DNA of 64,000 bases, taken from the NCBI GenBank assembly GCA_041648975.1, contig JBAZNZ010000004.1, forward strand, positions 1,779 to 65,778, read 5' to 3'. The translations under genes and the position numbers were made by a program. Of this stretch, positions 2,692 to 64,000 are shown one piece after another. Positions within the stretch are counted from its first letter, which is position 1. The number at the start of each line of letters is the position of its first letter. The notes beneath the pieces are model-generated. The model made no database searches and had not been told where the DNA came from. It worked only from the letters and a program-made list of their open reading frames with translations. The stretch is from Candidatus Omnitrophota bacterium (GTDB lineage Bacteria; Omnitrophota; Gorgyraeia; 2-01-FULL-45-10).

Positions 2692-2741
2692 TGAATGTTA
2701 CGTAAGGTTATAGAACGTTAATTAAGGTTACGTAAGGTTAC
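2692..2741. repeat. 10-bp-period repeat array, left arm (GTTACGTAAG-type units x5) flanking the Avd-like gene
   Basis: gttacgtaag|gttatagaac|gttaattaag|gttacgtaag|gttac. Confidence 0.8.
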
Positions 2742-3187
2742 TTTCGAAATTTCTCTCCCGGTACCTTCCATGTCCCTTCCCGTTCCATCTTATATAGCGA
2801 TTTCATAAATTGATTTGCCATATATGTAGCACTCTGAAACATTCTTGAAAACTCATCAAACTCTTCATTTGATATCAGACCATCTTCAAGGCAATCTTCG
2901 ATATCGCCACTTAACTCTTCTAATGATCCAAGGCTAATTTTTATGCTATGACTATATTCTCCTACAGTTCCCTTTCTGTAACCTTCGCGTATATTTTGTT
3001 TTGCACTTCTAGCGGCGTCTCGCATCTGAGAAACCAATCTAAAATGATTCTTAGAAAATCTTTCTGTTAAATTATGAATAATCTTGCGTATTTGACAAAT
3101 ATCCTGATAAAATTTCAAATTTTCATAAGCTGGCTTTCGCCATCGTCGCTGTAACCTTACGGAACCTTCTCTAACCTTACGTAACAT
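2738..3187 (-). CDS. Four-helix-bundle protein (23S rRNA intervening-sequence protein / Avd-like family, TIGR02436)
   Basis: The YENLKFYQ...IREGY motif pattern is typical of this family. The Arg-rich N-terminal 19 aa are encoded by the flanking repeat array. Confidence 0.8.
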   Translation of the reverse strand: MLRKVREGSVRLQRRWRKPAYENLKFYQDICQIRKIIHNLTERFSKNHFRLVSQMRDAARSAKQNIREGYRKGTVGEYSHSIKISLGSLEELSGDIEDCLEDGLISNEEFDEFSRMFQSATYMANQFMKSLYKMEREGTWKVPGEKFRK

Positions 3188-3197
3188 TATGTAACCT
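3151..3197. repeat. 10-bp-period repeat array, right arm (inverted AACCTTAC-type units), overlaps the start of the Avd-like CDS
   Basis: gtaaccttac|ggaaccttct|ctaaccttac|gtaacattat|gtaacct, which is the reverse complement of the left-arm units. Confidence 0.8.
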
Positions 3198-8788: not shown

Positions 8789-10215
8789 TCCCCCAGGACC
8801 TTTTTAAGAATCTTATTCACGACCGCGGGATTCGCTTTGCCTTTCGTCTGCCTCATGACCTGCCCAACGAGGAAAGTGAACGCGTTCTTCTTCCCGAGCC
8901 TGTAATCATCGACTGATTTTTTATTAACCTCCAGAACAGCCTTCACCGCTTCCTCCAGCTTCCCGGCGTCGCTTATCTGAGACATCCCCTTGCTCTTCAC
9001 GATCTCATGCGGTTCTGTTCCGGTCTCGATCGCCTCCGCAAGAACCGACTTCGCCATCTTTCCGCTTATAGTGCCGTCGTCGATCATCTTTATCAGGCCC
9101 ACCAGCCCTTCAGGCGGAACCTTCAGTTCCTTTATCGATATTCCCTTCGTATTCAGGTGGGCCATGATATCGCCCGTAATCCAGTTCGTCAGCGCCTTTG
9201 CGCCGGTATATAGTTTTACGCATTCTTCAAAATAATCGGCCAGGTCTATCTCGCTCGTCAGGACATTGGCGTCGTACTCGGAAAGGCCGAGATCCTTCTT
9301 ATACCTCTCTGACCTCGTCTCCGGCAGCTCGGGCATCTGGTCGAGAGCCTTCCGGACGACCTTAGCGTCGACTACAAAAGGGACAAGGTCAGGTTCGGGA
9401 AAATACCTGTAATCCTCGGCGTACTCCTTGGAGCGCATCGATACGGTGACCTGCTTTTCCGCGTCCCACAACCTCGTCTCCTGGACGATCTTCTCGCGGT
9501 CCGCCATTGCCGAGACCTGCCGCTTCGATTCATGCTCGAGGGCGAGCCTCACGCCTTTGAATGTATTCATGTTCTTGACTTCGACTTTCGTGCCGAGGAC
9601 CTTCTCACCCTGCGGCCTGATCGATATATTCGCGTCACACCTGAGCGAACCCTTCTCCATATCGCAATCCGACACCTTTAGATACTGCAGTATCGATTTC
9701 AGCCGCGTCAGGTAATCATAAGCTTCGTCCGGCGCGCTCAGGTCGGGTTCCGTCACTATCTCCAGAAGCGGCATTCCGCTGCGGTTATAATCGACGAGGC
9801 TGTAACTCTCGCCTTCCGGATGAATAAGCTTGCCCGCGTCCTCTTCGAGGTGGACGCGCTTTACCCTGATGCGCTTCTTCGCGCCCCGGGGGGCTATGTC
9901 GACGTATCCGTCGTAAGAGAGCGGCATATCATACTGCGATATCTGGAAATTTTTCGGCAGATCCGGATAGTAGTAGTTCTTCCTGTCGAACTTAATAAGT
10001 TTCTGTATCTTGCAGTTAAGGGCAAGCGCGACTTTTATCGAATAGAAGAACGCCTCTTCGTTCAACACGGGCAGGCTTCCCGGAAAACCCATGCATACCG
10101 GACAGACCTGAGAATTCGGCCTCTGTCCGAATTTCGTCGCGCATCCGCAGAACGCTTTAGTCTGCGTCGCAAGCTGCAGGTGGACCTCAAGCCCTATTAC
10201 TGTCTCGTATGTCAT
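8785..10215 (-). CDS. gatB: Asp-tRNA(Asn)/Glu-tRNA(Gln) amidotransferase subunit B
   Basis: MTYETVIGLEVHLQL...CGC...CPVCMG GatB signature, full length. Confidence 0.95.
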   Translation of the reverse strand: MTYETVIGLEVHLQLATQTKAFCGCATKFGQRPNSQVCPVCMGFPGSLPVLNEEAFFYSIKVALALNCKIQKLIKFDRKNYYYPDLPKNFQISQYDMPLSYDGYVDIAPRGAKKRIRVKRVHLEEDAGKLIHPEGESYSLVDYNRSGMPLLEIVTEPDLSAPDEAYDYLTRLKSILQYLKVSDCDMEKGSLRCDANISIRPQGEKVLGTKVEVKNMNTFKGVRLALEHESKRQVSAMADREKIVQETRLWDAEKQVTVSMRSKEYAEDYRYFPEPDLVPFVVDAKVVRKALDQMPELPETRSERYKKDLGLSEYDANVLTSEIDLADYFEECVKLYTGAKALTNWITGDIMAHLNTKGISIKELKVPPEGLVGLIKMIDDGTISGKMAKSVLAEAIETGTEPHEIVKSKGMSQISDAGKLEEAVKAVLEVNKKSVDDYRLGKKNAFTFLVGQVMRQTKGKANPAVVNKILKKVLGE

Positions 10216-10221
10216 ATCATA

Positions 10222-10280
10222 ATTGTGTAATGTTTATTGTGTAAAGTGTAATGCAAGTTTAATGTTTTATTGTGTAACGG
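10222..10280. repeat. TGTGTAA heptamer array, left arm flanking Avd-like gene 2
   Basis: tgtgtaa tgtttat tgtgtaa agtgtaa ... tgtgtaacgg, then GGAAAATT. Confidence 0.8.
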
Positions 10281-10284
10281 AAAA

Positions 10285-10656
10285 TTATACAGACGCTATA
10301 AGCTTCCCGAGCATATTACATATATGGATACAATTTTGTCTCAGTCCCGTGTGGCGCTGTTCTGAAATAATATTTTGCCTGGCCAGTATAGTCAGCATAG
10401 GAATACATTCTCGTGCAGAATTCAAAGAGATGCGATAGAATTGAGTCTTTTCTCTCTTCGATAATTTACCACTGCCCTCTGCCATATTATTAACTATCGA
10501 TAGAGATGCTCTGCGTAATTGATCCGCCAGGGAGAATTGGTAATCCCGCGGCAATTCTTTTGTCACATTAAATATATCCTGCACAAATTCTAATCCCATC
10601 CCATACACTTTTAATCTTTCAAAATCAAATATATATAGTTCTTTTTCATTATACAT
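10285..10656 (-). CDS. Four-helix-bundle protein (23S rRNA IVS / Avd-like family), second copy
   Basis: Family pattern (FERLKVYGMGLEFVQDIF ... NMAEGSGK). Sits exactly between two inverted TGTGTAA arrays. Confidence 0.8.
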   Translation of the reverse strand: MYNEKELYIFDFERLKVYGMGLEFVQDIFNVTKELPRDYQFSLADQLRRASLSIVNNMAEGSGKLSKREKTQFYRISLNSARECIPMLTILARQNIISEQRHTGLRQNCIHICNMLGKLIASV

Positions 10657-10667
10657 AGCAACATTCC

Positions 10668-10704
10668 ACCATCATTACACATTACACCTTACACATTACA
10701 CAAA
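10668..10704. repeat. TTACACA heptamer array, right arm flanking Avd-like gene 2
   Basis: cattacac attacac cttacac attacac aaat. Confidence 0.8.
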
Positions 10705-12146
10705 TCTGGCTTTCTTCTATGGTGTTCTGTCGACTGCTCAAACGCGTACGCCGCGCGCAATATCGTCTCTTCATCGAACGCCTTCCCTATCACCTGCAGC
10801 CCTATCGGGAGCCCCGCCTTAGTGAAACCGCACGGCACCGATATCGCGGGAAGCCCCGCCAGGTTCGCGGGAATAGTAAATACGTCCGAGAGATACATGC
10901 TTATCGGGTCTTCGGACCTTTCTCCGATCTTAAACGCGGCTGTAGGCGACGTCGGAGTGACGATGCAGTCGCAGTTATTCTCAAAAGCCTTCTCAAAATC
11001 CTCTTTAATCTTCGTCCTGACTTTCAAGGCTTTCACATAATACGCGTCGTAGTAACCCGTCGAAAGGCAATAGGTCCCGAGAAGGATCCTGCGCTTAGCC
11101 TCATCGCCGAAACCCTGCGAGCGCGTTTTGATATACATATCTATCATGTCTTTCGGGTCTTCCGCGCGGAGCCCATATTGGACGCCGTCGAAACGCGCGA
11201 GGTTCGAGCTCGCCTCTGCCGGACCGATAATATAGTAAGTGCTGACCGCGTATTCGGTGTGCGGCAGGCTTATCTCTACGATCCTGGCGCCGAGGCCTTT
11301 CAACACCTCAATGGCTCCCCTCACGCCTTTTTCTACCTCTTCCTCGATACCCTTTATGAAATATTCTTTCGGGACGCCGAGGCGCATCCCTTTTATGTCT
11401 TTGACGAGCGACTTCGTGTAGTCAGGCACCGGCGCGTCGACAGACGTTGAATCCATCTCATCGTGGCCCGCGATCACGCCAAGGAGAAGCGCGGCGTCCT
11501 CCACGTCCTTTGTTATCGGCCCTATCTGGTCTAGGCTGGAGGCGAACGCAATGAGCCCGTAACGGGAGACCCTGCCGTATGTCGGCTTCATACCGACGAC
11601 CCCGCAGAGGCTCGCGGGCTGTCGTATAGATCCGCCCGTGTCGGAACCGAGGGCGAGTATCGTCTCATCGGAGGCGACTGCCGCGGCGCATCCTCCGCTC
11701 GAACCGCCGGGGATCCTGTTAATATCCCACGGGTTCTTCGTCGGACCGTAGCAGGACGTCTCGCATGACGAGCCGAACGCGAACTCGTCCATGTTCGCCT
11801 TCCCTATCAGGATCGCGCCCTCTTCGTTCATCTTCCTGATCACGGTCGCGTCGTACGGCGGCTTGAAGCCTTTCAATATCCTCGAGCAGCAAGTCGTCTC
11901 TTCTCCCAGGACGCACATATTGTCTTTTACCAGGACCGGGATGCCGGAGAGCCTCCCGCGCTTATTGGCCTGGGTCTTTGCGCGCTCGACCGCCTTCTCC
12001 TTGCCCGGAAGCGCGAATGCCCTGATGCTCGGCTCGACAGCGCTTATCCTGTCGAAAAGCTCGTCGACTATCTTAGACGGCTGCAACCCTTCGCCGCTGA
12101 TCAGTTTTTTCAGTTCATGGGCCGTCAATGAATACAATTTTTCCAT
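10689..12146 (-). CDS. gatA: Glu-tRNA(Gln) amidotransferase subunit A
   Basis: Amidase signature GGSSGG...SLDQIGP, full length, between gatC and gatB. Confidence 0.95.
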
Positions 12147-12497
12147 CTATTTGCCTTCTATCCTTCGACGGGGCTCAGGATAGAATCCTGAGCTTTTGCC
12201 GAAGGATTCTATTATCTGCGGAACTTTAAAAAAGTCGCCTTCTTTCGATGGCGCGTTCTTGAGGGCCTCTTCCGGCTTTAACGATCCCTTAGGCGCGTCT
12301 TTCCTGAAGACGTTCTTAAGGCTCGCCAAAGGGTGGCTTGTAGGCTGGACGTTATCGGTGCTTAATTGATTTAATTTGCTTATATAAGATAATATAGATT
12401 CCAATTGTCCGGAATAAGAGCTAAGCTCTTTGTCGCTAAGACGAAGCCTGGCGAGAAGAGCGACATGTTTTACGGTCTCTTTGTCAATCTTTGGCAT
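12147..12497 (-). CDS. gatC: Glu-tRNA(Gln) amidotransferase subunit C
   Basis: ETVKHVALLARLRLSDKEL GatC pattern; start of the gatCAB operon. Confidence 0.9.
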   Translation of the reverse strand: MPKIDKETVKHVALLARLRLSDKELSSYSGQLESILSYISKLNQLSTDNVQPTSHPLASLKNVFRKDAPKGSLKPEEALKNAPSKEGDFFKVPQIIESFGKSSGFYPEPRRRIEGK

Positions 12498-12545
12498 AAT
12501 ATTATTACCTTTTGATATACCTTACCACAGTATATCGAGAATGTC

Positions 12546-12563
12546 AAATTTGCGTGCAAATTT
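12546..12563. promoter_or_regulatory. Palindromic operator-like site 1 upstream of gatC (AAATTTGC-GT-GCAAATTT), overlapping a TTGACA -35
   Basis: Perfect 8-bp arms with a 2-nt spacer. Minus strand reads ...aaatTTGACAttc. Confidence 0.4.
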
Positions 12564-12568
12564 GATAC

Positions 12569-12607
12569 TGAGGCATCGAAAAAAATGCGACTAGCGAGAG
12601 CATTTTT
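12569..12607 (-). terminator. Hairpin between the two operator-like sites (possible rsmA terminator or attenuator)
   Basis: ggcatcGAAAAAAATGCgactagcgagaGCATTTTTAgatgcc: 8-bp inner stem plus 6-bp outer stem. Weak U-tract. Confidence 0.25.
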
Positions 12608-12626
12608 AGATGCCGAAGTATCTTTA

Positions 12627-12646
12627 AAATTTGCGTGTAAATTTGG
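12627..12646. promoter_or_regulatory. Palindromic operator-like site 2 (AAATTTGCGTGTAAATTTGG), near-direct repeat of site 1, 80 bp away
   Basis: aaatttgcgtgtaaattt differs from site 1 (aaatttgcgtgcaaattt) by one substitution (C to T). Lies at the rsmA stop. Confidence 0.35.
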
Positions 12647-12648
12647 TA

Positions 12649-13488
12649 TCAATCGATTGAGTTCGCGATCCGCGCGAAGTCGGCGAGGCTTAAAGATTCC
12701 GGCCGGGAGGCCGGATCTACGGCTATCTTTTCTAATATCGAGGAAAGGCGCTCTTTTGGGATGCCGAGGACCTCTTCCCTGGAGAGGGAATTTATTATCG
12801 ACTTGCGCCTCTGGTTAAAAGATCCTCTTATGACCTTAAAAAGCGCTCCGTCATCCTTCGCCTCTACGGAAGGCCTGTCCAGGATATCGAGCCTTACCAG
12901 GCTTGAATCGATGTCAGGCGACGGATAAAAAGACGTCCTCTTTATTTTGTATATATGCTTTGGTCTTGTATAGTATTGGATAAAACAGCTGAGCGAGCTG
13001 TAATCTTTCGCGCCCGGTTCTGCCAGGATGCGGTCGGCAAACTCTTTCTGGACCACCATCACCACATATTTTATCGACAATCTGTTATCGATCAGGCACT
13101 CGATGATCGGGGTCGTGATATAATACGGCAGGCACCCCACCACTTTAAGCTTGCCCGCGGCGGAGGCCTTTTTGATGTCGAATTTCAATATGTCTTCGTT
13201 AAAGATACGCAGGCTGGGAAAGTCGTCTCCGATTATCTCTTCAAGTATGCCGTATGCCTTCTTATCCTTTTCCACCGCGGTCACGGCCGCGCCGGAACGC
13301 GCGAGGTCTATCGTAAGCGCGCCAAGCCCCGGGCCTATCTCCAGGACTCTATCGCCGGATAAGGCGCCCGCCTCGGATATTATCTTATCCCTTATATTCC
13401 CATCGATGAGATAGTTCTCTCCAAGCCTCTTCAAAGGCCTGAATCCGTATTTCGCAAACACTTCTTTTAGCTGAGTCTTGGTTAACAT
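12649..13488 (-). CDS. rsmA: 16S rRNA (adenine1518/1519-N6)-dimethyltransferase
   Basis: KRLGENYLID...LEIGPGLGALT KsgA/RsmA motifs. Confidence 0.95.
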   Translation of the reverse strand: MLTKTQLKEVFAKYGFRPLKRLGENYLIDGNIRDKIISEAGALSGDRVLEIGPGLGALTIDLARSGAAVTAVEKDKKAYGILEEIIGDDFPSLRIFNEDILKFDIKKASAAGKLKVVGCLPYYITTPIIECLIDNRLSIKYVVMVVQKEFADRILAEPGAKDYSSLSCFIQYYTRPKHIYKIKRTSFYPSPDIDSSLVRLDILDRPSVEAKDDGALFKVIRGSFNQRRKSIINSLSREEVLGIPKERLSSILEKIAVDPASRPESLSLADFARIANSID

Positions 13489-13507
13489 GTTTTAGTTCAA
13501 ACAACTT

Positions 13508-13648
13508 TGTGCAATGTGTAAAGTTTAATGTGTAATGTTGGTGTAAAGTAATCATGTGTAATGGAAAATTCGCTCAATTCAATCTTTTTTCATTACACAA
13601 TAATCCATTAAACCTGCTTTACACATTACACATCTAACATTACACAAA
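13508..13648. repeat. Palindromic TGTGTAA/TTACACA array with no gene at its centre (empty site), between rsmA and pdxA; supplies the pdxA stop codon
   Basis: About 8 TGTGTAA-type units, centre ggaaaattcgctcaattcaatctttttt, about 8 TTACACA units. The last unit ttacacaaaagtg contains the pdxA TAA. Confidence 0.85.
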
Positions 13649-14614
13649 AGTGTTATGCGTACAAAGCCGGTATGCCAGGAGAATCGCCTCGATCATCGAT
13701 GATGGGTCGGCCGTCCCTTTGCCCGCTATGTCAAACGCCGTCCCGTGGTCGGGGGAGGTCCTGACGAACGGCAAGCCTATGGTCAGATTAACGCCATCCT
13801 TAAAATATAGCAGCTTGAACGGTATAAGGCCCTGGTCGTGGTACATGGCAACGACCGCGTCGTACTTCCCGTTCATTAGATCGGCAAATATCACGTCGGC
13901 CGGGATCGGGCCGCTTATCCGGCCGACCTTTGCCGTGGCTTTCTCTATGGCGGGGATTATCGCCTTATCTTCTTCGTCGCCAAAGGCGCCGTTCTCGCCC
14001 GCATGCGGATTTAATCCCGAGACCCCTATGCGTGGATCTTTTATGTTGAAATATTCGCGCAGGTATTTATGGGTTATGCATATCGTCCTGCATATCGGCT
14101 CCACTGCAAGACTTCCAGGCACGCGCCTTAACGCGATGTGTCTGGTCACGAGCGTGATCTTAAGCCTGCCGCCGACGAACATCATCGCGAAATTCTTCGA
14201 GCCCGTCTTTTCAGCGAGATACTCGGTGTGTCCCTCGAACTTTTTAATTCCGGCCATCCTTATGGACATCTTGTTTACGGGAGCGGTTACGAGAGCGTCG
14301 GCTTCGCCCTTACGCAGGAGCCGGATGGCAGCGTCCAGATATCCTATCGCGGCTTTTCCAAAGACCGGGCTCTGAACGCCGTATTTAAAAGAGGCTGCAG
14401 GTACATTGGCTAGGTCTAAGAGCTCACACTTAAACTTCAGGGCCATGTCGCCCGCCGTCCTGTCCAGGGCGGCCCTGTCCCCTATAAGCAAAAAATCGGC
14501 AAGCCCTTTTATCTTTGGACTTGCCAGCGCCTTGAGGGTCACTTCCGGCCCTACGCCGGACGGGTCACCCATAGTAATGACTATCTTTTTTTTATTTGAA
14601 CGCGATGTATGCAT
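13640..14614 (-). CDS. pdxA: 4-hydroxythreonine-4-phosphate dehydrogenase
   Basis: IVITMGDPSGVGPEV PdxA N-terminus; surA-pdxA-ksgA synteny. Confidence 0.9.
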   Translation of the reverse strand: MHTSRSNKKKIVITMGDPSGVGPEVTLKALASPKIKGLADFLLIGDRAALDRTAGDMALKFKCELLDLANVPAASFKYGVQSPVFGKAAIGYLDAAIRLLRKGEADALVTAPVNKMSIRMAGIKKFEGHTEYLAEKTGSKNFAMMFVGGRLKITLVTRHIALRRVPGSLAVEPICRTICITHKYLREYFNIKDPRIGVSGLNPHAGENGAFGDEEDKAIIPAIEKATAKVGRISGPIPADVIFADLMNGKYDAVVAMYHDQGLIPFKLLYFKDGVNLTIGLPFVRTSPDHGTAFDIAGKGTADPSSMIEAILLAYRLCTHNTFV

Positions 14615-15560
14615 TCTTCTTGAGGCCTTCTATCCACCCCTTTACCTTTTCATTCGTCTTCTCCCTGTACAGAGCCTCCTCCACGTCCCGACGGGCTTCA
14701 TTCAGGGTAAGCGTCCTGGCAGGCCTCTTCTCGTCGATCTTGAATATATGATAACCGAGGCTCGTCTGGATGACATCAGAGACCTCGCCTTCGTTCATAT
14801 TGAAGACCGCTTTCTCTATTTCCGGGAGCAGGTCTCCTCTCTTCACATATCCCATGAGCCCGCCCTCTTGCGCGCCCGGGCCTTCCGAGTAGGAACTCGC
14901 CAATTCCGAAAAATCTCCGCCCTCTTTAAGCTTCCCGGAGATCTCCCTGGCCAGTTCCAGCGCCTTATTGATATCGGTCCCCTCCTTGACCCTTATAAGT
15001 ATATTACGAAGCTTCAAAGCTTCTTCCTGGGAAAAATCGTCCAGGTGGTTGTTGTAATAATTATTCACCTCGACGGGCGTAATAGATATTGTGCTTCCGA
15101 CCTTCATGTCCATCATCTTCCGCGTCATTATCTGTTCCCTGTACCGGCCCTTAAGCTCCTTCAATGTAAGGCGCTGGCTTGCCAGCGCTTCCTCGAAGAC
15201 CTCCTGAGAACCGAAACGCCTCTTCGCGTCTGCGACCTTCTCCTCTACCTCCCTGTCATCCACTGTTATGTTCTGTTTTTTGGCCTCGCTGAGGACGAGG
15301 CGGTCTTCTATCAGGCGTTCTACCGCTTTTTGTCTGGCATCTTCCAACTTTGCCATGAGCGCTTCGCCGCTGTATACCGTCTTGAATTTATCATATACGG
15401 GGACGAGCATGCCCTCTATCTCGCTGTCACAGATTATCTCGTCGTTCACCACTATCGCTATCTTATCCACGACCTCGGCATATCCCGGGTTCGCCGCGCA
15501 TATGGCCGATCCGATAATTACGGCCGGCAGAATCAGCATTTTAGCATTAATTTTTCTCAA
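14592..15560 (-). CDS. surA: SurA-like periplasmic chaperone / PpiC-type peptidyl-prolyl isomerase
   Basis: Signal peptide, SurA N-domain and a parvulin domain (VSDVIQTSLGYHIFKI). Confidence 0.75.
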   Translation of the reverse strand: MRKINAKMLILPAVIIGSAICAANPGYAEVVDKIAIVVNDEIICDSEIEGMLVPVYDKFKTVYSGEALMAKLEDARQKAVERLIEDRLVLSEAKKQNITVDDREVEEKVADAKRRFGSQEVFEEALASQRLTLKELKGRYREQIMTRKMMDMKVGSTISITPVEVNNYYNNHLDDFSQEEALKLRNILIRVKEGTDINKALELAREISGKLKEGGDFSELASSYSEGPGAQEGGLMGYVKRGDLLPEIEKAVFNMNEGEVSDVIQTSLGYHIFKIDEKRPARTLTLNEARRDVEEALYREKTNEKVKGWIEGLKKNAYIAFK

Positions 15561-16431
15561 GCTTCTCGCCTTCTTTCTCGCTCACGTCTTCAAGGGACTT
15601 GAAGACATCCTCTTTAATCTCGACTCCGTATTTTTTCTTGAGGTCCATAACGAAGGTATCGAAAAGCTCGCTGCGTTTCTTCTTCTTGAGCTCGCTTTCG
15701 ACAAAACGCCTGGTCTCTTCGTAACTCTGTATCTCCGGCTCTTTCTTGTCCGTCAGCTTTATTATGTGATAGCCGAACTGCGTATGGACGACATCGCTCG
15801 TCTGACCGACCTCAAGTTTCAAACAGGCTTTCTCGAAATCCTCGACAAGCTGCCCCTGCCTGAAATAGCCTACGTCTCCGCCGCGGTCCGCCGTCGCGTC
15901 CATAGAACGCTCTTTCGCGAGGTTCTCGAAGTTAGCGCCCTTGGTAAGCTCATCCAGGATCTCTCTTGCCTCTTTCTCTGTCGTAACCAGGATGTGAGAA
16001 GCCCTCCACATCGCGGGCCCTTTAAAACTCTCCTTATTCTCCTCGTAAAATTTCTTCATCTCGTCTTCCGAGACCTTCGCCTTATCCTCTATCTCGTTCT
16101 TTATAAGCTTGGCTATGAGTATCTTCTTCTTCGCGGCCTCGACGACCTCCTTCACCTCTTTATCATTCTCGACGCCTTTCTTTACGGCTTCCTCATAAAA
16201 CATCATCTCTACTATCGTCTCGTCGAGGAACCTCTTCCTGTTCTTTTCTACCATATTCCTGTAATAGGGAGGCATCTTGGCTATTCTCGACTGCAGCTCT
16301 GCCAGGGTAATGACTTTATTGCCCACCCTGGCGAGTATCTTGTCGCCTGCCGGCGGTTTCTTTGCGCACCCCGCCATAGCCGCTGACGCGATGACGACCG
16401 CAACCGATATATATATAATTATTTTCTTCAT
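15547..16431 (-). CDS. Parvulin-type peptidyl-prolyl isomerase, second SurA-like paralog (likely lipoprotein)
   Basis: N-terminal AMAGC lipobox-like sequence; parvulin core (ASHILV...QFGYHIIKL). Confidence 0.7.
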   Translation of the reverse strand: MKKIIIYISVAVVIASAAMAGCAKKPPAGDKILARVGNKVITLAELQSRIAKMPPYYRNMVEKNRKRFLDETIVEMMFYEEAVKKGVENDKEVKEVVEAAKKKILIAKLIKNEIEDKAKVSEDEMKKFYEENKESFKGPAMWRASHILVTTEKEAREILDELTKGANFENLAKERSMDATADRGGDVGYFRQGQLVEDFEKACLKLEVGQTSDVVHTQFGYHIIKLTDKKEPEIQSYEETRRFVESELKKKKRSELFDTFVMDLKKKYGVEIKEDVFKSLEDVSEKEGEKLEKN

Positions 16432-16482
16432 ATAACCGTTATTGTAGCATTTTAAACGGATTTCTTCAAGGATGTTCCGCTC

Positions 16483-18387
16483 TTACTTTGCCTTGCCATG
16501 TTTTAATCCGTCGATAGCCGATTTCAGGAACCTGCAGTACAGGTCAAATCCTACGGCGTTAATATAACCATGCTGCTCTAACCCTAAGAGGTTACCAGCG
16601 CCCCTTATCTGCAGGTCCTCCATAGCAAGCTTAAAGCCGCTCCCCAGCTCCTGGAACTTCTTTATCGCGTATAGCCTCTTCTGGGATTCCGCGCTCATAA
16701 CGAATTTTTTCGGTATCAATAGATAGGCGTAGGCCTTTTTCGTGAACCTCCCGACTCGGCCGCGCAGTTGGTACAGCTCTGAAAGGCCGAAGGCGTCGGC
16801 CCTGTTGATTATTATCGTATTCGCGTTAGGTATATCTATGCCCGATTCGATGATGGTGGTCGATACGAGGCAGTCGATCTTGCCGTTGATAAATTTCATC
16901 ATCGTATCTTCCAGGGCTTTCTCCGGCATCCTGCCGTGGGCCACCGATATGCTTACGCCGGGCGCCAGGCCGGCGACCGATTTAGCGAGAAGCTCTATGC
17001 CCTTTATCCTGTTATTTACGAAAAATATCTGCCCCGACCTCTTCTTCTCCCTCATGACGGCCTGCTTTATCAACGCGTCGTCGTAGTGCGTGACAACCGT
17101 CTCTACGGGAAGCCTCTCCGACGGCGGCGTGTTAATGACGGATATGTCTCTGCCGCCCATAAGGGCCAGATAAAGCGTCCTCGGTATCGGGGTAGCCGTA
17201 AGCGTAAGGACATCCACGCTGAAACGGAGTTTCTTAAGATATTCCTTATTATGGACGCCGAAACGCTGCTCCTCGTCGATTATCACAAGCCCCAGGTCTT
17301 TGAAAGAGATGTCGCCGGAAAGGAGGCGGTGCGTTCCTATTATTATGTCGACGGTGCCGTCGGATATGCCTTTTATTATGGCCCCCTGTTCCTTATCCGT
17401 CCTGAACCTCGACAACATCTCCACCGTTACGGGGAAATCCTTCATCCTGCCGCTGAATGTATTAAAATGCTGCTCGGCCAATATCGTCGTGGGAACGAGT
17501 ATCGCGACCTGTTTATTGTCCATGACGGCCTTGAACGCGGCCCTGATAGCGACTTCTGTCTTCCCGTATCCGACGTCGCCGCACAAAAGCCTGTCCATCG
17601 GTTTCGCGGATTCCATGTCTTTTTTAACATCCATCGTAGAACGCGCCTGGTCGGGAGTCTCTTTGTACGGGAATTTCTTCTCCATCTCCTTCTGCCAGTC
17701 GGTATCAGCCGAGAATTTGAATCCCGAGACCGTCGAGCGTTTTGCCTGCAGTTCCAAAAGCTCGACAGCTACCTGATGGATACCCTTCTTCGCGTTCTCT
17801 TTCGCGCGCTTCCACAGCTTGGCGCCAAGCTTATGGGTCTTCGGGAGGCGCTTTTCAAACCCGAGATATTTCTGCACTTTATCAAGGTCTTCGAACGGAA
17901 CATAGAGCTTATCGCCGCCGGCATATTCTATGACTAAGTGCTCGACATACTTACCGGCTGTTTTTAGCCTCTCCAGGCCAAGGTACTTCCCGATACCGTG
18001 GTCTATATGGACGACGTAATCGCCGGAGTCAATATCGACGAAGTTGTCTATGGGCGATTCTTCTTCGGTTTCTTCAGACCGCTTCCTTATCTTCCTCCTG
18101 GATATGCCTTTTATCGGCAGTATGATGGCTACGTTATGCTCCTCGACGATCTCATACGTGAGCGGGTCGAGACTCCTTATCTTGCCGACTTTGTCATGCG
18201 AAAATTCGATTCTGAGCGGGTATTCGAACGTTACGGGATATATAGTCAGGGAGTCCCCGATACGGGAAAAGTCGCCTTCCTCGGCGACTCTCTTGCAGGC
18301 GCGGTAACCGAACTCTACGAGCCTTGCGGCAAGAGATTCGATATCAATATCGTTCTCATCGACGCGGATTTTTATTGAGTCAAACAT
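16483..18387 (-). CDS. mfd: Mfd-like transcription-repair coupling factor, short form (RNAP-interacting domain + SF2 translocase, no D1a/D3/D7)
   Basis: RID-like GDYVVHIDHGIGKY...KLYVP; PFEETPDQ-like linker; helicase motifs GDVGYGKTEVA, DEEQRFG, TATPIPRTL, QLRGRVGR. Protein ends right after motif VI. Confidence 0.8.
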   Translation of the reverse strand: MFDSIKIRVDENDIDIESLAARLVEFGYRACKRVAEEGDFSRIGDSLTIYPVTFEYPLRIEFSHDKVGKIRSLDPLTYEIVEEHNVAIILPIKGISRRKIRKRSEETEEESPIDNFVDIDSGDYVVHIDHGIGKYLGLERLKTAGKYVEHLVIEYAGGDKLYVPFEDLDKVQKYLGFEKRLPKTHKLGAKLWKRAKENAKKGIHQVAVELLELQAKRSTVSGFKFSADTDWQKEMEKKFPYKETPDQARSTMDVKKDMESAKPMDRLLCGDVGYGKTEVAIRAAFKAVMDNKQVAILVPTTILAEQHFNTFSGRMKDFPVTVEMLSRFRTDKEQGAIIKGISDGTVDIIIGTHRLLSGDISFKDLGLVIIDEEQRFGVHNKEYLKKLRFSVDVLTLTATPIPRTLYLALMGGRDISVINTPPSERLPVETVVTHYDDALIKQAVMREKKRSGQIFFVNNRIKGIELLAKSVAGLAPGVSISVAHGRMPEKALEDTMMKFINGKIDCLVSTTIIESGIDIPNANTIIINRADAFGLSELYQLRGRVGRFTKKAYAYLLIPKKFVMSAESQKRLYAIKKFQELGSGFKLAMEDLQIRGAGNLLGLEQHGYINAVGFDLYCRFLKSAIDGLKHGKAK

Positions 18388-18409
18388 ATATCATGCAGGA
18401 AACACCTTT

Positions 18410-18536
18410 GTTTAATGTGTAAAGTGTAATGTGTAATGCCGGTGTAATGTATGCATGTGTAATGGAAAATTCTCTTCCATTACACAATTAACCCTTACAC
18501 CCACTTTACACATTACACATCAAACATTACACAAAG
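18410..18536. repeat. Palindromic TGTGTAA/TTACACA array with no gene at its centre (empty site), between mfd-like and argS
   Basis: Centre catgtgtaatggaaaattctcttccattacacaat, flanked by inverted heptamer units. Confidence 0.85.
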
Positions 18537-18557
18537 GAATCATTTTTAGCGGTCACA

Positions 18558-21546: not shown

Positions 21547-21550
21547 TATA

Positions 21551-21652
21551 GTTATAAGTTGTAAGTCGTAAGTTGTAAGCGAATTGTATATAACTTATAA
21601 CTTATAACTTATAACTTACAACTTATAACTTATAACTTATAACTTACAACTA
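21551..21652. repeat. Palindromic TTGTAAG/CTTATAA heptamer array between nadD and proA; supplies the proA stop codon
   Basis: ttataag ttgtaag tcgtaag ttgtaag cg | aattgtatat | aacttat aacttat aacttac ... aacttac aac TAC(tag stop). Confidence 0.85.
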
Positions 21653-22906
21653 CTTTCTCACCTGCCCGCTGCCGTACACCACATACTTATATGACGTCAG
21701 TTCCTCAAGTCCCATGGGCCCTCTGGCGTGTATCTTATCCGTAGATATGCCCATCTCCGCGCCTTTGCCGAATTCGCCGCCGTCGGTAAAACGCGTCGAC
21801 GCATTGACATAGACGCAGGCTGAATCCACTTCCCGCAGGAACTTATCCGCTCTGGCCTTGTTCCTCGTGACTATGGCGTCGGAATGGTATGAGCCGTACT
21901 TCATTATATGCCGGATGGCCTCATCCACATCCCTGACCACCTTTACCGAGAGTTTCAGATCCAGATACTCCCTGTACCAGTCATCCTCTGTAGCCAGTTT
22001 CACGCAGTCTACCAGATCTTTGACTTCTTTAGAGCCCCTTATCTCGACACCGGAATTTTTGAGCCTTCTTATCATTTTGGGGAGGAAGCTGCCGGCGATC
22101 TTCCTATTCACAAGCATGCATTCCATGGCGTTGCATACCCCGGGCCTTTGGACCTTTGCGTTATAGCATATCTCTTCCGCCATCTTGAGATCAGCGCTTT
22201 CATCGACATAGGTATGGCACACGCCTTTGTAATGTTTGATGACCGGTATCCTCGAATTTCTCGTAACTTCCCTTATCAAAGACTCTCCGCCTCTTGGTAT
22301 GACAAGGTCTATCAGGCCTTCCTGTTTAAGCAGCCGATCGACGAGGCCCCTGTCCTTATCCTTGATCATCGATATCGAGTCCGCAGGTATATTGCATTTA
22401 ACAAGCGCCTTCCGCAGGACGTCGAATATCGCTATGTTAGAATTAAGCGACTCGCTGCCGCCGCGCAGTATGACAGCGTTAGAGGACTTCAAACACAACC
22501 CGATACAATCGCTGGTAACATTAGGTCTCGACTCATAGATGATAAGAATGACGCCTATAGGGACCCTGACCTTCTTTATCAGGAGGCCGTTAGGCCTTCT
22601 TATGGTATCTATGATATCTCCGACGGGATCCTTAAGCTTCGATATCTTCAAAAGCGAATCTGCCATCGACCTTATCCTCGCGTCCGTAAGCGTCAATCTG
22701 TCTATAAGCGCGGAAGACATTTTTTTTGCGCGGGCCATGGCCAGATCCTTACGATTCCGGGAAATAACGAATCTCGCGTTCTTTACCAACGCCGCGGCCA
22801 TAGCCTCAAGCGCCCTATTTTTGGACTTCGTATTCGCAAGCGCAAGGGCTCTGGAAGAAGCCTTAGCCTTTTCACACAATCTTTTTATATCGTTATTTTT
22901 TGCCAT
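21650..22906 (-). CDS. proA: Glutamate-5-semialdehyde dehydrogenase
   Basis: ProA family length and motifs; proB-proA synteny. Confidence 0.95.
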   Translation of the reverse strand: MAKNNDIKRLCEKAKASSRALALANTKSKNRALEAMAAALVKNARFVISRNRKDLAMARAKKMSSALIDRLTLTDARIRSMADSLLKISKLKDPVGDIIDTIRRPNGLLIKKVRVPIGVILIIYESRPNVTSDCIGLCLKSSNAVILRGGSESLNSNIAIFDVLRKALVKCNIPADSISMIKDKDRGLVDRLLKQEGLIDLVIPRGGESLIREVTRNSRIPVIKHYKGVCHTYVDESADLKMAEEICYNAKVQRPGVCNAMECMLVNRKIAGSFLPKMIRRLKNSGVEIRGSKEVKDLVDCVKLATEDDWYREYLDLKLSVKVVRDVDEAIRHIMKYGSYHSDAIVTRNKARADKFLREVDSACVYVNASTRFTDGGEFGKGAEMGISTDKIHARGPMGLEELTSYKYVVYGSGQVRK

Positions 22907-25233: not shown

Positions 25234-25284
25234 TCAAATGTTACGTAATGTTATGTAAGGTTCATTAAGGTTACGTAACGTTAC
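25234..25284. repeat. 10-bp-period GTTAC-type array (single arm, 5 units) between rpmA and rplU, abutting the rplU stop
   Basis: caaatgttac|gtaatgttat|gtaaggttca|ttaaggttac|gtaacgttac|tag. Confidence 0.8.
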
Positions 25285-25607
25285 TAGCTCCCTTTTCCTG
25301 CTTCTATTTCCTTAACCTTCAGCTTCAGGACATTCTGCCTGTGGCCTATCTTCTTCTTCTCGCTCTTGCGCTTTTTGTATTTAAACGCGACTACCTTATC
25401 CTGTCTTATCATGCCAAGGACCTCGCACACCACATGAGATCCCTTAACATGAGGGTTCCCTATATGGAGCGAGTTGCCGTCCTTTACCATCAATACCGTG
25501 TTAAGCTTTACCTCGCCGCCCTTCTTAGCGGCCAGTTTCTCAACCAGGATTATGTCGTTCTTGGCTACTTTGTATTGCTTACCGCCTGTCTCTATCACTG
25601 CGTACAT
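25284..25607 (-). CDS. rplU: 50S ribosomal protein L21
   Basis: MYAVIETGGKQYKV start. Confidence 0.95.
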   Translation of the reverse strand: MYAVIETGGKQYKVAKNDIILVEKLAAKKGGEVKLNTVLMVKDGNSLHIGNPHVKGSHVVCEVLGMIRQDKVVAFKYKKRKSEKKKIGHRQNVLKLKVKEIEAGKGS

Positions 25608-47828: not shown

Positions 47829-47935
47829 CCCCATCCCTGCCCGCCAGACTTAGCTTGCTGCGATCAGGCGGGCATACTTCGCCCTTTATCGAGAAAAAGT
47901 CTGGAAGGAGCGTCACCCGTAAAAAATTCCCACCC
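47829..47935. repeat. Inner repeat copy B: GC hairpin (TGCCCGCC...GGCGGGCA) plus core motif CGCCCTTTATCGAGAAAAAGTCTGGAAGGAGCGTCACCCGTAAAAAATTCC
   Basis: Direct-orientation copy of the core motif shared with IR-R. A related hairpin (CCCGCCTG...CAGGCGGG) lies at 47655-47690 next to IR-L. Confidence 0.75.
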
Positions 47936-48152: not shown

Positions 48153-48947
48153 TCAATTATTGCCTATAGTCTTTTGCTCAATGTTTTCTGCTTGAGTAAA
48201 ATATTTTGATAAATTTGCAGTAAAAAATCTATTATTTTTTTGAAATATCTTTTTGAATTCGCTCTCTTTATCCTTTTTATAATATTTTCTGAATCCATTT
48301 GCGAGAGAATGGGCCATCTTCACGCAATATTCTGAATCATCTGCTTCTGAGATACTAACTACTAGCGCTTCTTCGCCCTTAAAATAAGGGGCGTTTGCAT
48401 ACCTGTTAACAGCTTTTGATACCCCCCGCAGTCTTTCATCTATCCACCTTCTCGCTTGCTCCTCAATTATTTCACGTTCTCTAATTTTTAATGAATATCT
48501 GTCGTATTTTATAAAAATATTATTTATTCTTTCTTTACAAGACACAATATCAAATATTGAATGTACAAGCGTCAAGCCATACGAAACTAGCCATACATAA
48601 TTATTTAAGGATGATATTTCTTTATTATTAAGCAAACTACTATTTTTTCGAGCCTCATATGCCTTGATAATAATATCACGGATTTTAGAATCGCTAAAAT
48701 TATAATATACGACATTAGCATACAATCTATGTCTCGTTAATATATCATTTAACATAATAAGATCATTATAAGAAGCTCCGCTTTTTCGTTCACAAAATTT
48801 ATATTGTTCTTTTTCTAATAACTCAACGTTTCCCCCGAGGTGACTTATTACAGCAAAACAAAAACAATTATCCTCTTGCTCTAACTCCTTATATCCTGAT
48901 TCATCACTAAAACAATATAGAGGATTACCTACGATCGCATCATTCAT
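48153..48947 (-). CDS. DUF3800-like hypothetical protein on an AT-rich insert
   Basis: N-terminal PLYCFSDESGY resembles the DUF3800 hh.DESG start. Composition is strongly AT-rich relative to flanks. Own promoter-like TTGATG-16-TATTAT. Confidence 0.55.
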   Translation of the reverse strand: MNDAIVGNPLYCFSDESGYKELEQEDNCFCFAVISHLGGNVELLEKEQYKFCERKSGASYNDLIMLNDILTRHRLYANVVYYNFSDSKIRDIIIKAYEARKNSSLLNNKEISSLNNYVWLVSYGLTLVHSIFDIVSCKERINNIFIKYDRYSLKIREREIIEEQARRWIDERLRGVSKAVNRYANAPYFKGEEALVVSISEADDSEYCVKMAHSLANGFRKYYKKDKESEFKKIFQKNNRFFTANLSKYFTQAENIEQKTIGNN

Positions 48948-49060: not shown

Positions 49061-49140
49061 AAAATTTTTACGGGTGATGCTCCTTCCAGACTTTTTCTCG
49101 ATAAGGGCGAAGTTTGGGATGGGGCAGTACAGATACGCGC
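49061..49140. repeat. Inner repeat copy D, an inverted and partly deleted copy of the 47780-47935 segment
   Basis: aaaatttttacgggtgatgctccttccagactttttctcgataagggcgaag...gggatggggcag..agatacgcgc is the reverse complement of ...gcgcgtatct...ccccatccc...cttcgccctttatcgagaaaaagtctggaaggagcgtcacccgtaaaaaatt. Confidence 0.8.
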
Positions 49141-53436: not shown

Positions 53437-53464
53437 AGCTATCAGCTATCAGCTAAAAGCTATT
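53437..53464. repeat. AGCTATC heptamer array (4 units) between mreB and mreC, abutting the mreB stop
   Basis: agctatc agctatc agctaaa agctatt a. Confidence 0.75.
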
Positions 53465-54536
53465 ACCTTTCGAGCCTGGGTGTAACGGTCACCTTCTTCA
53501 GATATTTTATCTCGCTCAATACCTTGCCTGTGCCGAGAGCTACCGCGGTCATCGGGTCTTCCGACAGGTGGACGGGGAGCCCCGTCTCTTCCGAAATAAG
53601 CTTATCTATGCCCCTCAAGAGAGAGCCTCCTCCCGCGAGGACTATGCCCTTCTCTATAAGATCCGACGAAAGTTCGGGCGGCGTGCGTTCAAGAGTTATC
53701 CTTACGGCTTCAAGTATCTGCGCTATAGGCTCTGCCATCGCCTCTCTTATCTCTTCGCTGGTTATAGTGACCGTCTTCGGCAATCCCGCGACAAGGTCGC
53801 GTCCCTTGACCTCAAGTTTAAGCTCTTCTTCCAGCGGATATACTGAGCCTATCTTTATCTTTATGTCTTCTGCGGTCCTCTCACCAATCATGAGGTTATA
53901 ATTCTTTTTCATGTAATTTATGATCGCCTCGTCCAGTTCGTCCCCGCCGACCCTCACAGATTTGGAGAAAACAACGCCGGCCAGGGATATGACGGCCATT
54001 TCGGTCGTCCCGCCGCCTATATCTATTATCATATTACCGGACGGGTCCTGTATCGGCAAGCCTACGCCTATAGCCGCGGCCATCGGCTCTTCTATCATGA
54101 AGACTTCTCTTGCGCCCGCATGCAGGGCCGAATCCTTCACCGCCCTCTTTTCCACCTCTGTTATGCCGGAAGGGATCGCTATAACTATCCTTGGACGGAC
54201 GAGAGGTTTCGCCTTATTAACTTTTTTTATAAAATACCGCAGCATCGCCTCTGATATTTCAAAATCCGTTATTACGCCGTGCCGCATAGGCCTGATCGCG
54301 ACTATGTTGCCCGGCGTGCGGCCGAGCATCCTCTTGGCCTCTTCGCCGACGGCAAGGACGTTCGTAGTGCCGGCCTGGACCGCGACGACTGAAGGCTCGC
54401 ATAAAACGATACCCTGGTTTTTTAGATAAACCAGGGTCGTAGCTGTGCCAAGATCGATGCCCATGTCGTTAGCAAACAGGCCAAGAACCTCATTATATAA
54501 TTTCGACGCTGTGCTTATAATATTCTTTATATTCAT
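53463..54536 (-). CDS. mreB: Rod shape-determining actin homolog MreB
   Basis: [13 protein letters not shown]... actin-fold motifs. Confidence 0.95.
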
Positions 54537-55892: not shown

Positions 55893-55986
55893 CGTAATTA
55901 AGCGATTCTATGATCAAACCGACTTTGGCGATTAAGTGATTAAGTCTTACTTAATCACTTAATAACTTAATCGCTTAATCACTTAC
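55893..55986. repeat. Palindromic GATTAAG/CTTAATC array between aroA and rluD
   Basis: cgtaattaagcgatt ... gcgattaag tgattaag tc ttac ttaatca cttaata acttaatc gcttaatc acttac. Confidence 0.85.
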
Positions 55987-62289: not shown

Positions 62290-62307
62290 CTCTTATAAAT
62301 GGAGGTT

Positions 62308-62410
62308 CCGTAAGGTTAGCGAAAGTTAATTAATGTTACGTAAGGTTACATCTCTAACTATATTTAACCTTACGTAACCTTCTCTAACTTTACGTAACAT
62401 TACGTAACCT
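62308..62410. repeat. Palindromic 10-bp-period array (4 GTTA-type units + 6 TAAC-type units) with no gene at its centre, between mtnP and yggT
   Basis: ccgtaaggtta|gcgaaagtta|attaatgtta|cgtaaggtta|c atct ctaac|tatatttaac|cttacgtaac|cttctctaac|tttacgtaac|attacgtaac. Confidence 0.85.
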
Positions 62411-62416
62411 CATTAC

Positions 62417-63552: not shown

Positions 63553-63616
63553 TAAGTCAGCGATTAAGTATTAATTTTTATCACTTAATCGCTTAATTGC
63601 TTAATCACTTAATCAC
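63553..63616. repeat. Palindromic GATTAAG/CTTAATC array between proC and yggS
   Basis: gcgattaag tattaa ttttta tcacttaatc gcttaat tgcttaatc acttaatc ac. Confidence 0.8.
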
Positions 63617-63627
63617 AAAACTACGCC

Positions 63628-64000
63628 TCACTCCCCAAAAATCGCCCTTCCTATCCTAACCATTGTCGACCCCTCTTCTATGGCAACCTCGAAGTCATTG
63701 GTCATGCCCATGGATAATAGCTGTAAGCTGTAAGCTGTAAGCTGTAAGTTATTGATTTGGTCGAGCAACTGCTTGAGAGCGCGAAAATAAGGTCTTGCCT
63801 TCTCAGGATCGTCCGAATCCGGCGCTATTGTCATAAAACCTCTAACATTTATATTAGGATATAATAATAGAGTTTTAAAAAACTCTATTGTATCCTCAGG
63901 CCTTATCCCGAATTTCGTTCCTTCGCCCGACACATTAACCTGTATCAATATATCCTGGACCTTGTCCAGCTTAGACGCCTCTTTGTCTATTTCCTGGGCG
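63628..64000 (-). CDS. yggS: YggS-family PLP homeostasis protein, C-terminal part (N-terminus beyond the window end)
   Basis: ...ILIQVNVSGE...LSMGMTNDFEVAIEEGSTMVRIGRAIFG matches the YggS C-terminus. Frame stays open to position 64000. Confidence 0.8.
   Translation of the reverse strand, partial: AQEIDKEASKLDKVQDILIQVNVSGEGTKFGIRPEDTIEFFKTLLLYPNINVRGFMTIAPDSDDPEKARPYFRALKQLLDQINNLQLTAYSLQLLSMGMTNDFEVAIEEGSTMVRIGRAIFGE
63721..63748. repeat. Perfect (CTGTAAG)x4 heptamer tandem repeat inside the yggS coding sequence
   Basis: ctgtaagctgtaagctgtaagctgtaag, which encodes LQLTAYSLQL on the minus strand in place of the usual short G-L-x-L-D linker. Confidence 0.9.

Follow-up and report, generated by a model that had tools for sequence, protein, structure and literature searches.

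We analysed a window of 64,000 nt (the whole stretch of DNA under study) on a contig of a Candidatus Omnitrophota metagenome-assembled genome (MAG), in which three palindromic arrays of the heptamer TGTGTAA, here named A, B and C and together called type 1, lie between genes of the minus strand, one of them enclosing a gene for a 123-aa four-helix-bundle protein (gene A). In the direction of the transcript, the minus-strand genes follow each other in the order argS, an mfd-like gene, two surA-like genes, pdxA, rsmA, gatC, gatA, the 123-aa open reading frame (ORF) and gatB, and the neighbours of the arrays are gatB|gatA for A, rsmA|pdxA for B and mfd-like|argS for C. An inverted-repeat search and heptamer counts confirmed the three palindromic arrays at the positions that an earlier note on this DNA had given for them. 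The type-1 features of the window are the following:

10642..10708, minus strand: element A, 5' arm of the transcript (UGUGUAA-type units), delimited by the inverted repeat, the sequence and the ORF ends
10285..10656, minus strand: gene A, 123-aa four-helix-bundle gene of PF05635/TIGR02436 (S23p, 23S rRNA intervening sequence (IVS) protein family), assigned by profile matches
10218..10284, minus strand: element A, 3' arm of the transcript (UUACACA-type units), ending 2-8 nt before the gatB start codon at 10213-10215
13500..13654, minus strand: type-1 hairpin B, gene-less, in the pdxA|rsmA spacer, minimum free energy (MFE) -47.6 kcal/mol, z -4.9
18405..18537, minus strand: type-1 hairpin C, gene-less, in the argS|mfd-like spacer, MFE -67.9 kcal/mol, z -9.9

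In the inverted-repeat search, the arms of A (10218-10284 and 10642-10708) were separated by 357 nt, those of B (13500-13568 and 13586-13654) by 17 nt and those of C (18405-18467 and 18475-18537) by 7 nt, with arm lengths of 63-69 nt and an arm-to-arm complementarity of 73-79%. The exact heptamer TGTGTAA occurs 22 times in the window, where 2.65 copies would be expected and 0 of 100 shuffles reached 22, and 20 of these 22 copies fall within A, B and C. The earlier note had counted about eight units in each arm; the architecture of the arrays was found as described, but units with no more than one mismatch to TGTGTAA number only 4-6 in each arm, the rest of which is more degenerate. A, B and C can be aligned without register shifts, with mean column identities of 79% and 73%, which indicates that a single structured element has been copied, as opposed to simple repeats that happen to be alike.

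Gene A had also been placed exactly at the centre of its array. It is indeed enclosed by the two arms, but the innermost portion of the 5' arm already includes the ATG and first codons of the gene, and the stop codon of the gene overlaps GGAAAATT. The gene of relatives starts with MWNGK or MCNGK, i.e., with ATGTG(G/T)AATGGAAAA, which consists of the last heptamer and of a stretch that pairs with UUUUCCAUUACACA after the stop, and the start codon would therefore be located inside the stem. The outermost TTACACA unit provides the TAA stop codon of gatA (10689-10691) as well as that of pdxA (13640-13642). Also, a promoter-like match, TTTACA-18-TATGAT (10/12), is formed at 10216-10245 (minus strand) by the 3' arm of element A together with the few bases that precede the gatB start, and the inserted arm could give the downstream gatB a promoter, although this is a consensus match only and insignificant alone.

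The protein encoded by gene A matched the PF05635 profile (23S_rRNA_IVP) with an E-value of 1.3e-27 and 96.5 bits (cut-off 33.8) and TIGR02436 with 91.9 bits (cut-off 24). Similarly, the protein of a second gene in the window (2738-3187) gave 66.9 bits (E 2.1e-18) with PF05635 and 60.2 bits with TIGR02436, so that both window proteins exceed the curated cut-offs and belong to this family. In contrast, the gene A protein scored 25.3 bits with bAvd (PF22296), under the cut-off of 40, and 27.5 bits with DivGenRetAVD (NF033474), the model for Avd of diversity-generating retroelements (DGRs), under the cut-off of 80. A DGR reading was rejected, as there is no reverse transcriptase nearby, the Avd models remain under their cut-offs and the neighbours are housekeeping genes. 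The nearest solved structure is XCC0516 (PDB 2GSC; E 8.4e-9, residues 12-102), and the relatives XCC0516 and Avd are homopentameric rings (PMC4990558, citing Lin 2006), in line with five chains per PDB entry. Within the core motif R..S...N..E-G, residues N56, N57, A59, E60, G61, S62 and G63 are invariant among 28 relatives and R49 and S53 are nearly so. A ratio of nonsynonymous to synonymous changes (dN/dS) of ~0.12 was obtained among relatives of the gene A protein, with dS >1 (synonymous sites saturated), and the protein is under purifying selection. PADLOC gave no match and hence no support for a known defence role. The family PF05635/TIGR02436 is very large and includes solved structures, but to our knowledge no function is known for it.

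Three relatives with the same gene order and with GatA proteins 76-78% identical to that of the window (L209, L210 and L211; L-numbers denote comparison loci fetched from other sequences) were compared. In L210 and L211, gatA and gatB overlap (ATGA) with no array between them. The other three junctions of these two relatives are equally array-free and never exceed 10 nt, with pdxA and rsmA overlapping or 1 nt apart and with 6-10 nt at argS|mfd and larB|larC. Individually, pdxA|rsmA overlaps or measures 1-5 nt in L209-L211, larB|larC measures 6-7 nt in L210 and L211, and the argS|mfd-like spacer of relatives is only 10-21 nt long. No array with a period of 6-10 was detected in 19.4 kb of L211, as against seven array arms in the corresponding part of the window. 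In L209, the pdxA|rsmA and argS|mfd junctions are clean; gatA|gatB (10459-10691) carries a 233-nt element with intact AAACTCT/AGTTTAG arms and an ORF reduced to a 43-aa N-terminal remnant, larB|larC carries a filled element with GATTAAG units, as in the type-4 hairpins of the window (listed below), and tsaD|mgtC carries another filled element. At the proA|nadD spacer, the window has a gene-less GTTRTAA hairpin and L125 (ProA 62% identical) a filled TGTGTAA element, and in L211 the two genes overlap. Since the same junctions are array-free in syntenic relatives, the arrays are insertions. By this comparison, a junction is found in one of three states, namely without an element, with a hairpin only or with a hairpin that contains a gene, and different element types entered the same junctions independently. 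The comparison of orthologous spacers that the earlier note had proposed thus revealed presence/absence polymorphism, but the arrays B and C, which the note had taken for empty sites, are instead gene-less copies of the element, and the truly empty site is the tight, array-free junction of L210 and L211. No consistent direct repeat that would represent a target-site duplication was seen when window junctions were compared with the empty junctions of L209-L211, where, however, flanks at 76-78% protein identity are so diverged that a short target-site duplication could escape the comparison.

At least 194 homologues of protein A were found. Omnitrophota account for most of them, and the contigs that carry them are usually 1-3 kb or, more broadly, ~0.5-3 kb long; repeat-flanked genes probably break short-read metagenome assemblies. 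The Omnitrophota homologues occupy other gene junctions and have TGTGTAA/TTACACA flanks. The earlier note had named two outcomes that would speak against a mobile element, genes of relatives that lack such flanks and arrays that are confined to these loci and show no polymorphism. Neither was observed, as homologues in other Omnitrophota genomes keep the flanks and the same flanks occur at other junctions and are polymorphic among syntenic relatives.

A metagenome scan yielded 80 loci encoding proteins 43-71% identical to protein A, of which ~77 formed the non-redundant set. In most of the 80 loci, the two flanks, upstream and downstream, match each other as reverse complements with z>5 versus shuffles. 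Among 77 loci, a significant period of 7 or 14 was detected in 58 and a period of 8 in 5, while 12 had none; together with the tandem repeats that TRF (Tandem Repeats Finder) reported for the window, this period test demonstrates tandem 7-nt units in several copies at many intergenic loci. In 30/39 clear loci, the 5' and 3' units are reverse complements of each other with at most one mismatch, as compared to 29% for shuffled pairings. At least 18 different units were encountered. Nearly all relatives at ≥59% identity retain TGTGTAA, and more distant relatives have units such as CGTGTAA, GGTGTAA, AGTGTAA, CAGTTTA, CCGTTTA, AGAGAAC, GTGTACN, TAGAAAC and others. Arms of different elements are 77-88% identical although synonymous sites are saturated. 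In these comparisons, both arms have the same repeat unit, which varies from one protein clade to the next and remains conserved where synonymous sites are saturated, with purifying selection acting on protein and arms alike.

The element is, according to the same set of loci, almost always in sense orientation: the upstream neighbour lies on the same strand in 62/67 cases, the downstream neighbour in 59/64 and both neighbours in 50/56. Median gaps to the neighbours are ~59 and ~40 nt, so that the spacer is little more than the arms. Two metagenomic loci with TAGAAAC-type arms (L181, 3688-4534; L190, 1238-1962) lie between tRNA genes, and the element therefore also occurs in spacers of tRNA operons. 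Another Omnitrophota genome (L125-L128, 755-980) has a palindromic array with CAAGAC-containing units, a further repeat type, between rplU and a gene for RNase E/G.

The minus-strand RNAs of A, B and C fold far better than shuffled sequences (z -4.3 to -9.9), with the same range for all folded hairpins of the window, and the proposal of the earlier note that the arrays fold into long RNA stems is thus supported by predicted folds. For 76 loci, the arm duplex was more stable as sense strand in 58 (Wilcoxon p 9e-7), and G-U pairs made up 14.1% on the sense strand versus 9.8% on the antisense strand. Similarly, single changes in an alignment of eight type-1 hairpins produced 17 G-U versus 7 A-C pairs. 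Promoter and terminator scans gave no terminator-like site after the hairpins. Sense-strand stability, orientation bias and the lack of terminator-like sites together favour, but do not prove, that the stem matters in the sense transcript. Pairing is supported by the switching of units at the family level and by strand asymmetry and not by classical covariation, because type-1 pairs are mostly invariant.

The two gene-less copies B and C resemble each other most (88% identity, score 87), and L031, a gene-less copy from another genome, is also similar to B (score 94). The local filled copy A is more distant from both (scores of 51 and 69); its own nearest matches are filled copies in other genomes (scores of 83 and 87). 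L031, a TGTGTAA hairpin in an Omnitrophota MAG, was the one real match in a scan of genome contigs with the 16-mer TGTGTAAYGGAAAATT, which is too short as a query, nearly all of the 120 matches being due to chance. In L123 (~474-700) and L124 (4467-4599), a gene-less TGTGTAA hairpin directly follows a filled element, i.e., in tandem. The 43-aa remnant at gatA|gatB of L209 looks like gene decay in place and would be an intermediate between filled and gene-less forms. Probably both routes occur, decay of the gene in place and a gene-less lineage of its own as in MITEs (miniature inverted-repeat transposable elements); support for this is moderate, as arm sequences are short and repetitive and their clustering is only moderate evidence. 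A shared orientation bias of the gene-less copies was dropped from consideration, since the palindromic centre itself makes orientation weak and L031 looks antisense.

Outside Omnitrophota, a tblastn search of plasmids gave 16 records, eight of which were inspected. Inverted short-unit arrays surround the copies on plasmids of cyanobacteria, namely Nostoc (two plasmids), Calothrix, Geminocystis (parA|parB) and Picosynechococcus (cmr2|cmr3), and of Bacteroidota (Riemerella), and a copy from Azospirillum with GACAGAG/GACGGAT arms is located inside a large-subunit (LSU) rRNA gene; in all, the architecture was met in four phyla besides Omnitrophota. Homologues of XCC0516, whose crystal structure defines the family, lie at accB|accC in X. 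campestris and X. citri, with GGGAATC GGGAGTG GAGAATC GGGAATC as upstream flank and complementary CCCATT-type units downstream that abut the accC ATG. In cyanobacteria, heptamers known as short tandemly repeated repetitive (STRR) sequences have been on record since 1990. The heptamer GGGAATC was reported to be "surprisingly enriched" in X. campestris and X. citri, with a count of ~186 sites and, in each genome, 70-75 pairs in convergent (inverted) arrangement, and was linked to neither a four-helix-bundle gene nor mobile elements (Rehm et al., 2015; PMC4692102), and for the TAACTGA heptamer of Beggiatoaceae "no mechanism evident" was stated (PMC4679880). In the Coxiella 23S IVS, a 28-bp stem made of terminal inverted repeats is cut by RNase III, and 3-4 GACAGAT heptamers, their number varying among strains, stand right before the S23p ATG (PMC4990558). 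Genes annotated as 23S_rRNA_IVP have been reported inside cas loci and labelled "CRISPR-associated" (PMC3936711, PMC10910872); such copies fit insertion between co-transcribed genes. In the literature searched, we found no paper describing non-rRNA copies of PF05635 as hairpin elements.

The window elements share with the ORF-bearing 23S IVSs (Coxiella burnetii, Leptospira, Brucella and Xanthomonas-type S23p) a PF05635 protein encoded in the loop, terminal inverted repeats that form a long stem around a sense-oriented ORF, the sense orientation itself, in heavily transcribed RNA in the case of the IVSs, and tandem heptamers of variable number in the 5' stem directly upstream of the ATG, as described for Coxiella (GACAGAT x3-4). 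However, IVSs lie inside 23S rRNA genes (helix 9, 25 or 45), whereas Rfam detects no rRNA in the window, where the elements are at junctions of protein genes, with mRNA as host RNA, and related loci are in tRNA spacers. Also, the arms of the window are much longer arrays (45-70 nt versus the 28-bp Coxiella stem), gene-less copies stand beside filled ones, several unit types are present in one genome, and excision by RNase III was shown for IVSs and is presumed for the window elements. The intergenic heptamers of Xanthomonas (GGGAATC), cyanobacteria (STRR) and Beggiatoaceae (TAACTGA) are likewise tandem in spacers, often between co-directional genes, but many of those arrays are solitary and direct and the papers treat them as G-quadruplex-forming or regulatory, with no word on a four-helix-bundle gene or a mobile element; for Xanthomonas, the link to a PF05635 gene is established at one locus (accB|accC) and not genome-wide. 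Correia/NEMIS (neisserial miniature insertion sequence) MITEs of Neisseria are small and palindromic, occur in many copies, are co-transcribed with their neighbours, fold into hairpins and are processed by RNase III. Together with repetitive extragenic palindromes (REP), bacterial interspersed mosaic elements (BIME) and REP doublets forming hairpins (REPIN), these MITEs resemble the window elements as small, palindromic, intergenic, multicopy and hairpin-forming sequences, and terminal inverted repeats, small size, multiple copies and a longer form are all present in the window. In contrast to MITEs and REPINs, neither a transposase or RAYT (REP-associated tyrosine transposase) partner nor a target-site duplication was seen for the window elements, their arms are tandem short-unit arrays and not unique terminal repeats, and the longer, "autonomous" form encodes only a four-helix-bundle protein that is not enzyme-like, where a MITE would have a transposase-encoding parent. 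Avd of DGRs is a pentameric partner of nucleic acid and reverse transcriptase. It has a related four-helix-bundle fold, with a similarity at the family level that is reflected by the bAvd and DivGenRetAVD scores given above, but no reverse transcriptase and no template or variable repeat is near any copy.

We consider it likely that the TGTGTAA arrays are selfish hairpin elements of the IVS type, in which a PF05635 gene is bracketed by inverted short-unit arrays and which live in operon spacers. The earlier note had suggested IVS-like selfish elements in intra-operonic spacers, and this suggestion gains support from the family-wide flanks, the polymorphism among relatives, the folds and the heptamers of Coxiella. 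As shown by comparison of the loci, insertion takes place at junctions inside transcription units, which are co-directional stop/start junctions here and tRNA-tRNA spacers and rRNA helices elsewhere. The gene-less hairpins are non-autonomous derivatives, some of which arose by decay in place while others apparently form a lineage of their own. We propose that the element would be transcribed within the host transcript and that its arms would pair into an imperfect stem of 45-70 bp, with the gene in the loop and the start codon inside the stem. By analogy to the IVSs of Coxiella, Leptospira and Salmonella, RNase III would then cut the stem and release the element RNA, and the insertion would be tolerated because the flanking cistrons are left intact. 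The sequence of the unit would be read, most simply by the ring-forming protein of the element itself, as suggested by how strictly the period is kept, by unit conservation and by the rings that relatives form.

Some observations weigh against this explanation. No copy was seen to be accompanied by a target-site duplication, a transposase or a reverse transcriptase. The type-1 stem shows almost no compensatory change, with 4 double changes in 48 pairs and a slightly unfavourable covariation term of +1.6 for eight hairpins; the G-U excess on the sense strand could in part come from a transcription-linked mutation bias; and RNase III cleavage and co-transcription of the element are inferred by analogy. 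The gene-less L031 seems to be antisense to its neighbours, and the S23p protein of Coxiella was reported as probably not made (PMC4990558). Finally, a copy between cas6 and cas4 on plasmid pPg_01 of Pseudanabaena galeata (L216, ~1385-1960) has direct and not inverted arrays, (AAAAGCT) ~x14 upstream and (AAAAGCC) ~x9 downstream; this is the one clear exception to the hairpin rule and implies that the stem is not obligatory.

Those 14 + 9 direct copies without a stem would suit a different explanation, according to which the primary role of the tandem units, as DNA or single-stranded RNA, is to be bound by a multimeric four-helix-bundle protein and the stem is secondary. The strict 7-nt period of most loci, which is needed by neither a stem nor RNase III, also argues for it, as do the way in which the unit follows the protein clade, its conservation at saturated dS and the homopentameric rings of the relatives XCC0516 and Avd (PMC4990558, citing Lin 2006). 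However, co-variation of unit and protein is expected even without binding, as the unit is physically linked to the gene, 7/8 loci from other phyla as well as the majority of the 77 metagenomic loci have inverted arrays, and some loci have a period of 8 or 10. On balance, we regard primary binding sites as possible but doubtful. It seems unlikely that the gene-less arrays are nothing but scars, each one a filled element that lost its gene in place, so that gene-less hairpins never spread. The 43-aa ORF between the intact arms of the 233-nt L209 element would be a decay intermediate as required by this idea, and gene-less copies retain first-codon sequence (TGTGTAATGAAAAAAG / ATGTGGAATGGAAAAG) as well as AATTTTCC from after the stop. 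Against it, B, C and L031 cluster together while A clusters with filled copies elsewhere, which for such short repetitive sequences is moderate evidence, and the loop junction is at the same place in gene-less copies of at least three genomes.

A DNA-level MITE or a palindrome of the REP/REPIN type, whose arms would be recognised by an unlinked transposase with the four-helix-bundle gene as a mere passenger, could account for inverted arms, small size, many copies, forms with and without a gene, conservation of arm sequences well beyond neutral sites and the independent arrival of different types at the same junctions. We judge it quite unlikely, though, since no junction compared has a target-site duplication, no transposase adjoins any of ~90 loci, the sense orientation of ~93% and the sense-strand G-U excess would be unexpected, and nothing but the PF05635 gene itself accompanies the arrays consistently in the five phyla. 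Alternatively, the hairpins might benefit the host as signals for RNA processing or stability or as translational couplers, with the four-helix-bundle protein as regulator. Their exact placement at stop/start junctions with upstream stop codons taken from the array, the promoter-like match inside the arm before gatB and the purifying selection on the protein would all agree with a host function. In relatives, however, the same operons are array-free with overlapping genes, different unit types occupy one junction in different genomes, and the sites (gat, lar, pro/nad, acc, cas, par, tRNA and rRNA) share no functional theme, so that such a benefit is very unlikely.

The interpretation as IVS-type hairpin elements would change how this family is viewed. 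So far, PF05635/TIGR02436 has been treated as an rRNA curiosity or as a "CRISPR-associated" gene (PMC3936711, PMC10910872), whereas here its gene would be the cargo of a hairpin element that inserts inside rRNA, tRNA and mRNA transcription units, and gene-neighbourhood associations such as those with cas loci would be explained as hitch-hiking. IVS elements would be placed in a broader family and the 30-year-old proposal of IVS mobility would be reopened. It would be an IVS-type element of mRNA and tRNA operons, with gene-less derivatives and clade-specific heptamer arms. A link to the intergenic heptamer repeats of other bacteria, described as enigmatic in several papers, is plausible, and a concrete and testable origin is thereby offered for them. 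For experiments, the Xanthomonas accB-XCC0516-accC locus is a culturable system with a crystal structure already solved. More tentatively, PF05635 elements might constitute a widespread, unrecognised mobile class, in which the ring protein would act as a specificity factor that reads the heptamers, one unit per subunit, and promotes the spread of filled and gene-less hairpins alike. The intergenic heptamer excess (STRR, GGGAATC, TAACTGA) would then be a footprint of this class, and 23S IVSs would be a special case that landed in rRNA. Spread of such a class might use an RNA intermediate, as the relative Avd works with a reverse transcriptase.

Besides type 1, the window contains hairpins of three further repeat types, and in total at least eight hairpins of four repeat types were counted in the 64 kb, two filled and six gene-less, all eight located between two minus-strand ORFs. 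With ~1 repeat array per 8 kb, such dense repeats probably break metagenome assemblies. The second PF05635 gene was missed by tblastn of the window with protein A and was revealed by Pfam annotation of the source contig. Rfam and tRNA scans of the window gave no matches. The further elements are:

2694..3197, minus strand: filled type-2 element with inverted arrays of the 10-nt unit GTAAGGTTAC, arms 2694-2741 and 3151-3197, at the larB-like|larC junction
2738-3187, minus strand: PF05635 ORF inside the type-2 element, 149 aa as longest ORF, PF05635 E 2.1e-18
62302..62411, minus strand: gene-less type-2 hairpin (GTAAGGTTAC units) between two minus-strand ORFs, fold z -6.9
25240..25285, no strand assigned: solitary type-2 half array, one arm and no hairpin, fold z -0.1
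21548..21655, minus strand: gene-less type-3 hairpin of GTTRTAA heptamers, ~4 and 9 units on the two sides, in the proA|nadD spacer, z -6.7
55897..55985, minus strand: gene-less type-4 hairpin of GATTAAG(T) units between two minus-strand ORFs, z -7.0
63553..63617, minus strand: second, shorter gene-less type-4 hairpin of GATTAAG(T) units, read from the sequence alone

A different kind of inverted repeat was noticed at 47883-47928 and 49062-49107, where 46-nt arms with 93% complementarity flank a low-GC segment of 1.1 kb that contains a 264-aa ORF (48153-48947, minus strand) without a Pfam or PADLOC match. The segment 47883-49107 may be a different inserted element.

Two solitary, direct heptamer arrays are associated with ORFs. 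One of them, (AGCTATC) x3.9 at 53437-53463, is at the 3' end of ORF 53463..54536 and has no inverted partner nearby. The other, a perfect tandem (AGCTGTA) x4.3 at 63719-63748, lies within ORF 63628..63948 (minus strand), apparently in frame and just upstream of the C-terminal peptide, which presumably belongs to a pyridoxal phosphate (PLP)-binding protein of the YggS type, as judged from its appearance.

The Mfd-like protein encoded next to array C (16483-18387) has 634 aa with UvrB-interaction, CarD/TRCF (transcription-repair coupling factor) RID and helicase domains and with no match to the C-terminal TRCF domain. Its homologues in relatives have 630-632 aa, and the protein appears to be a short, lineage-specific form.

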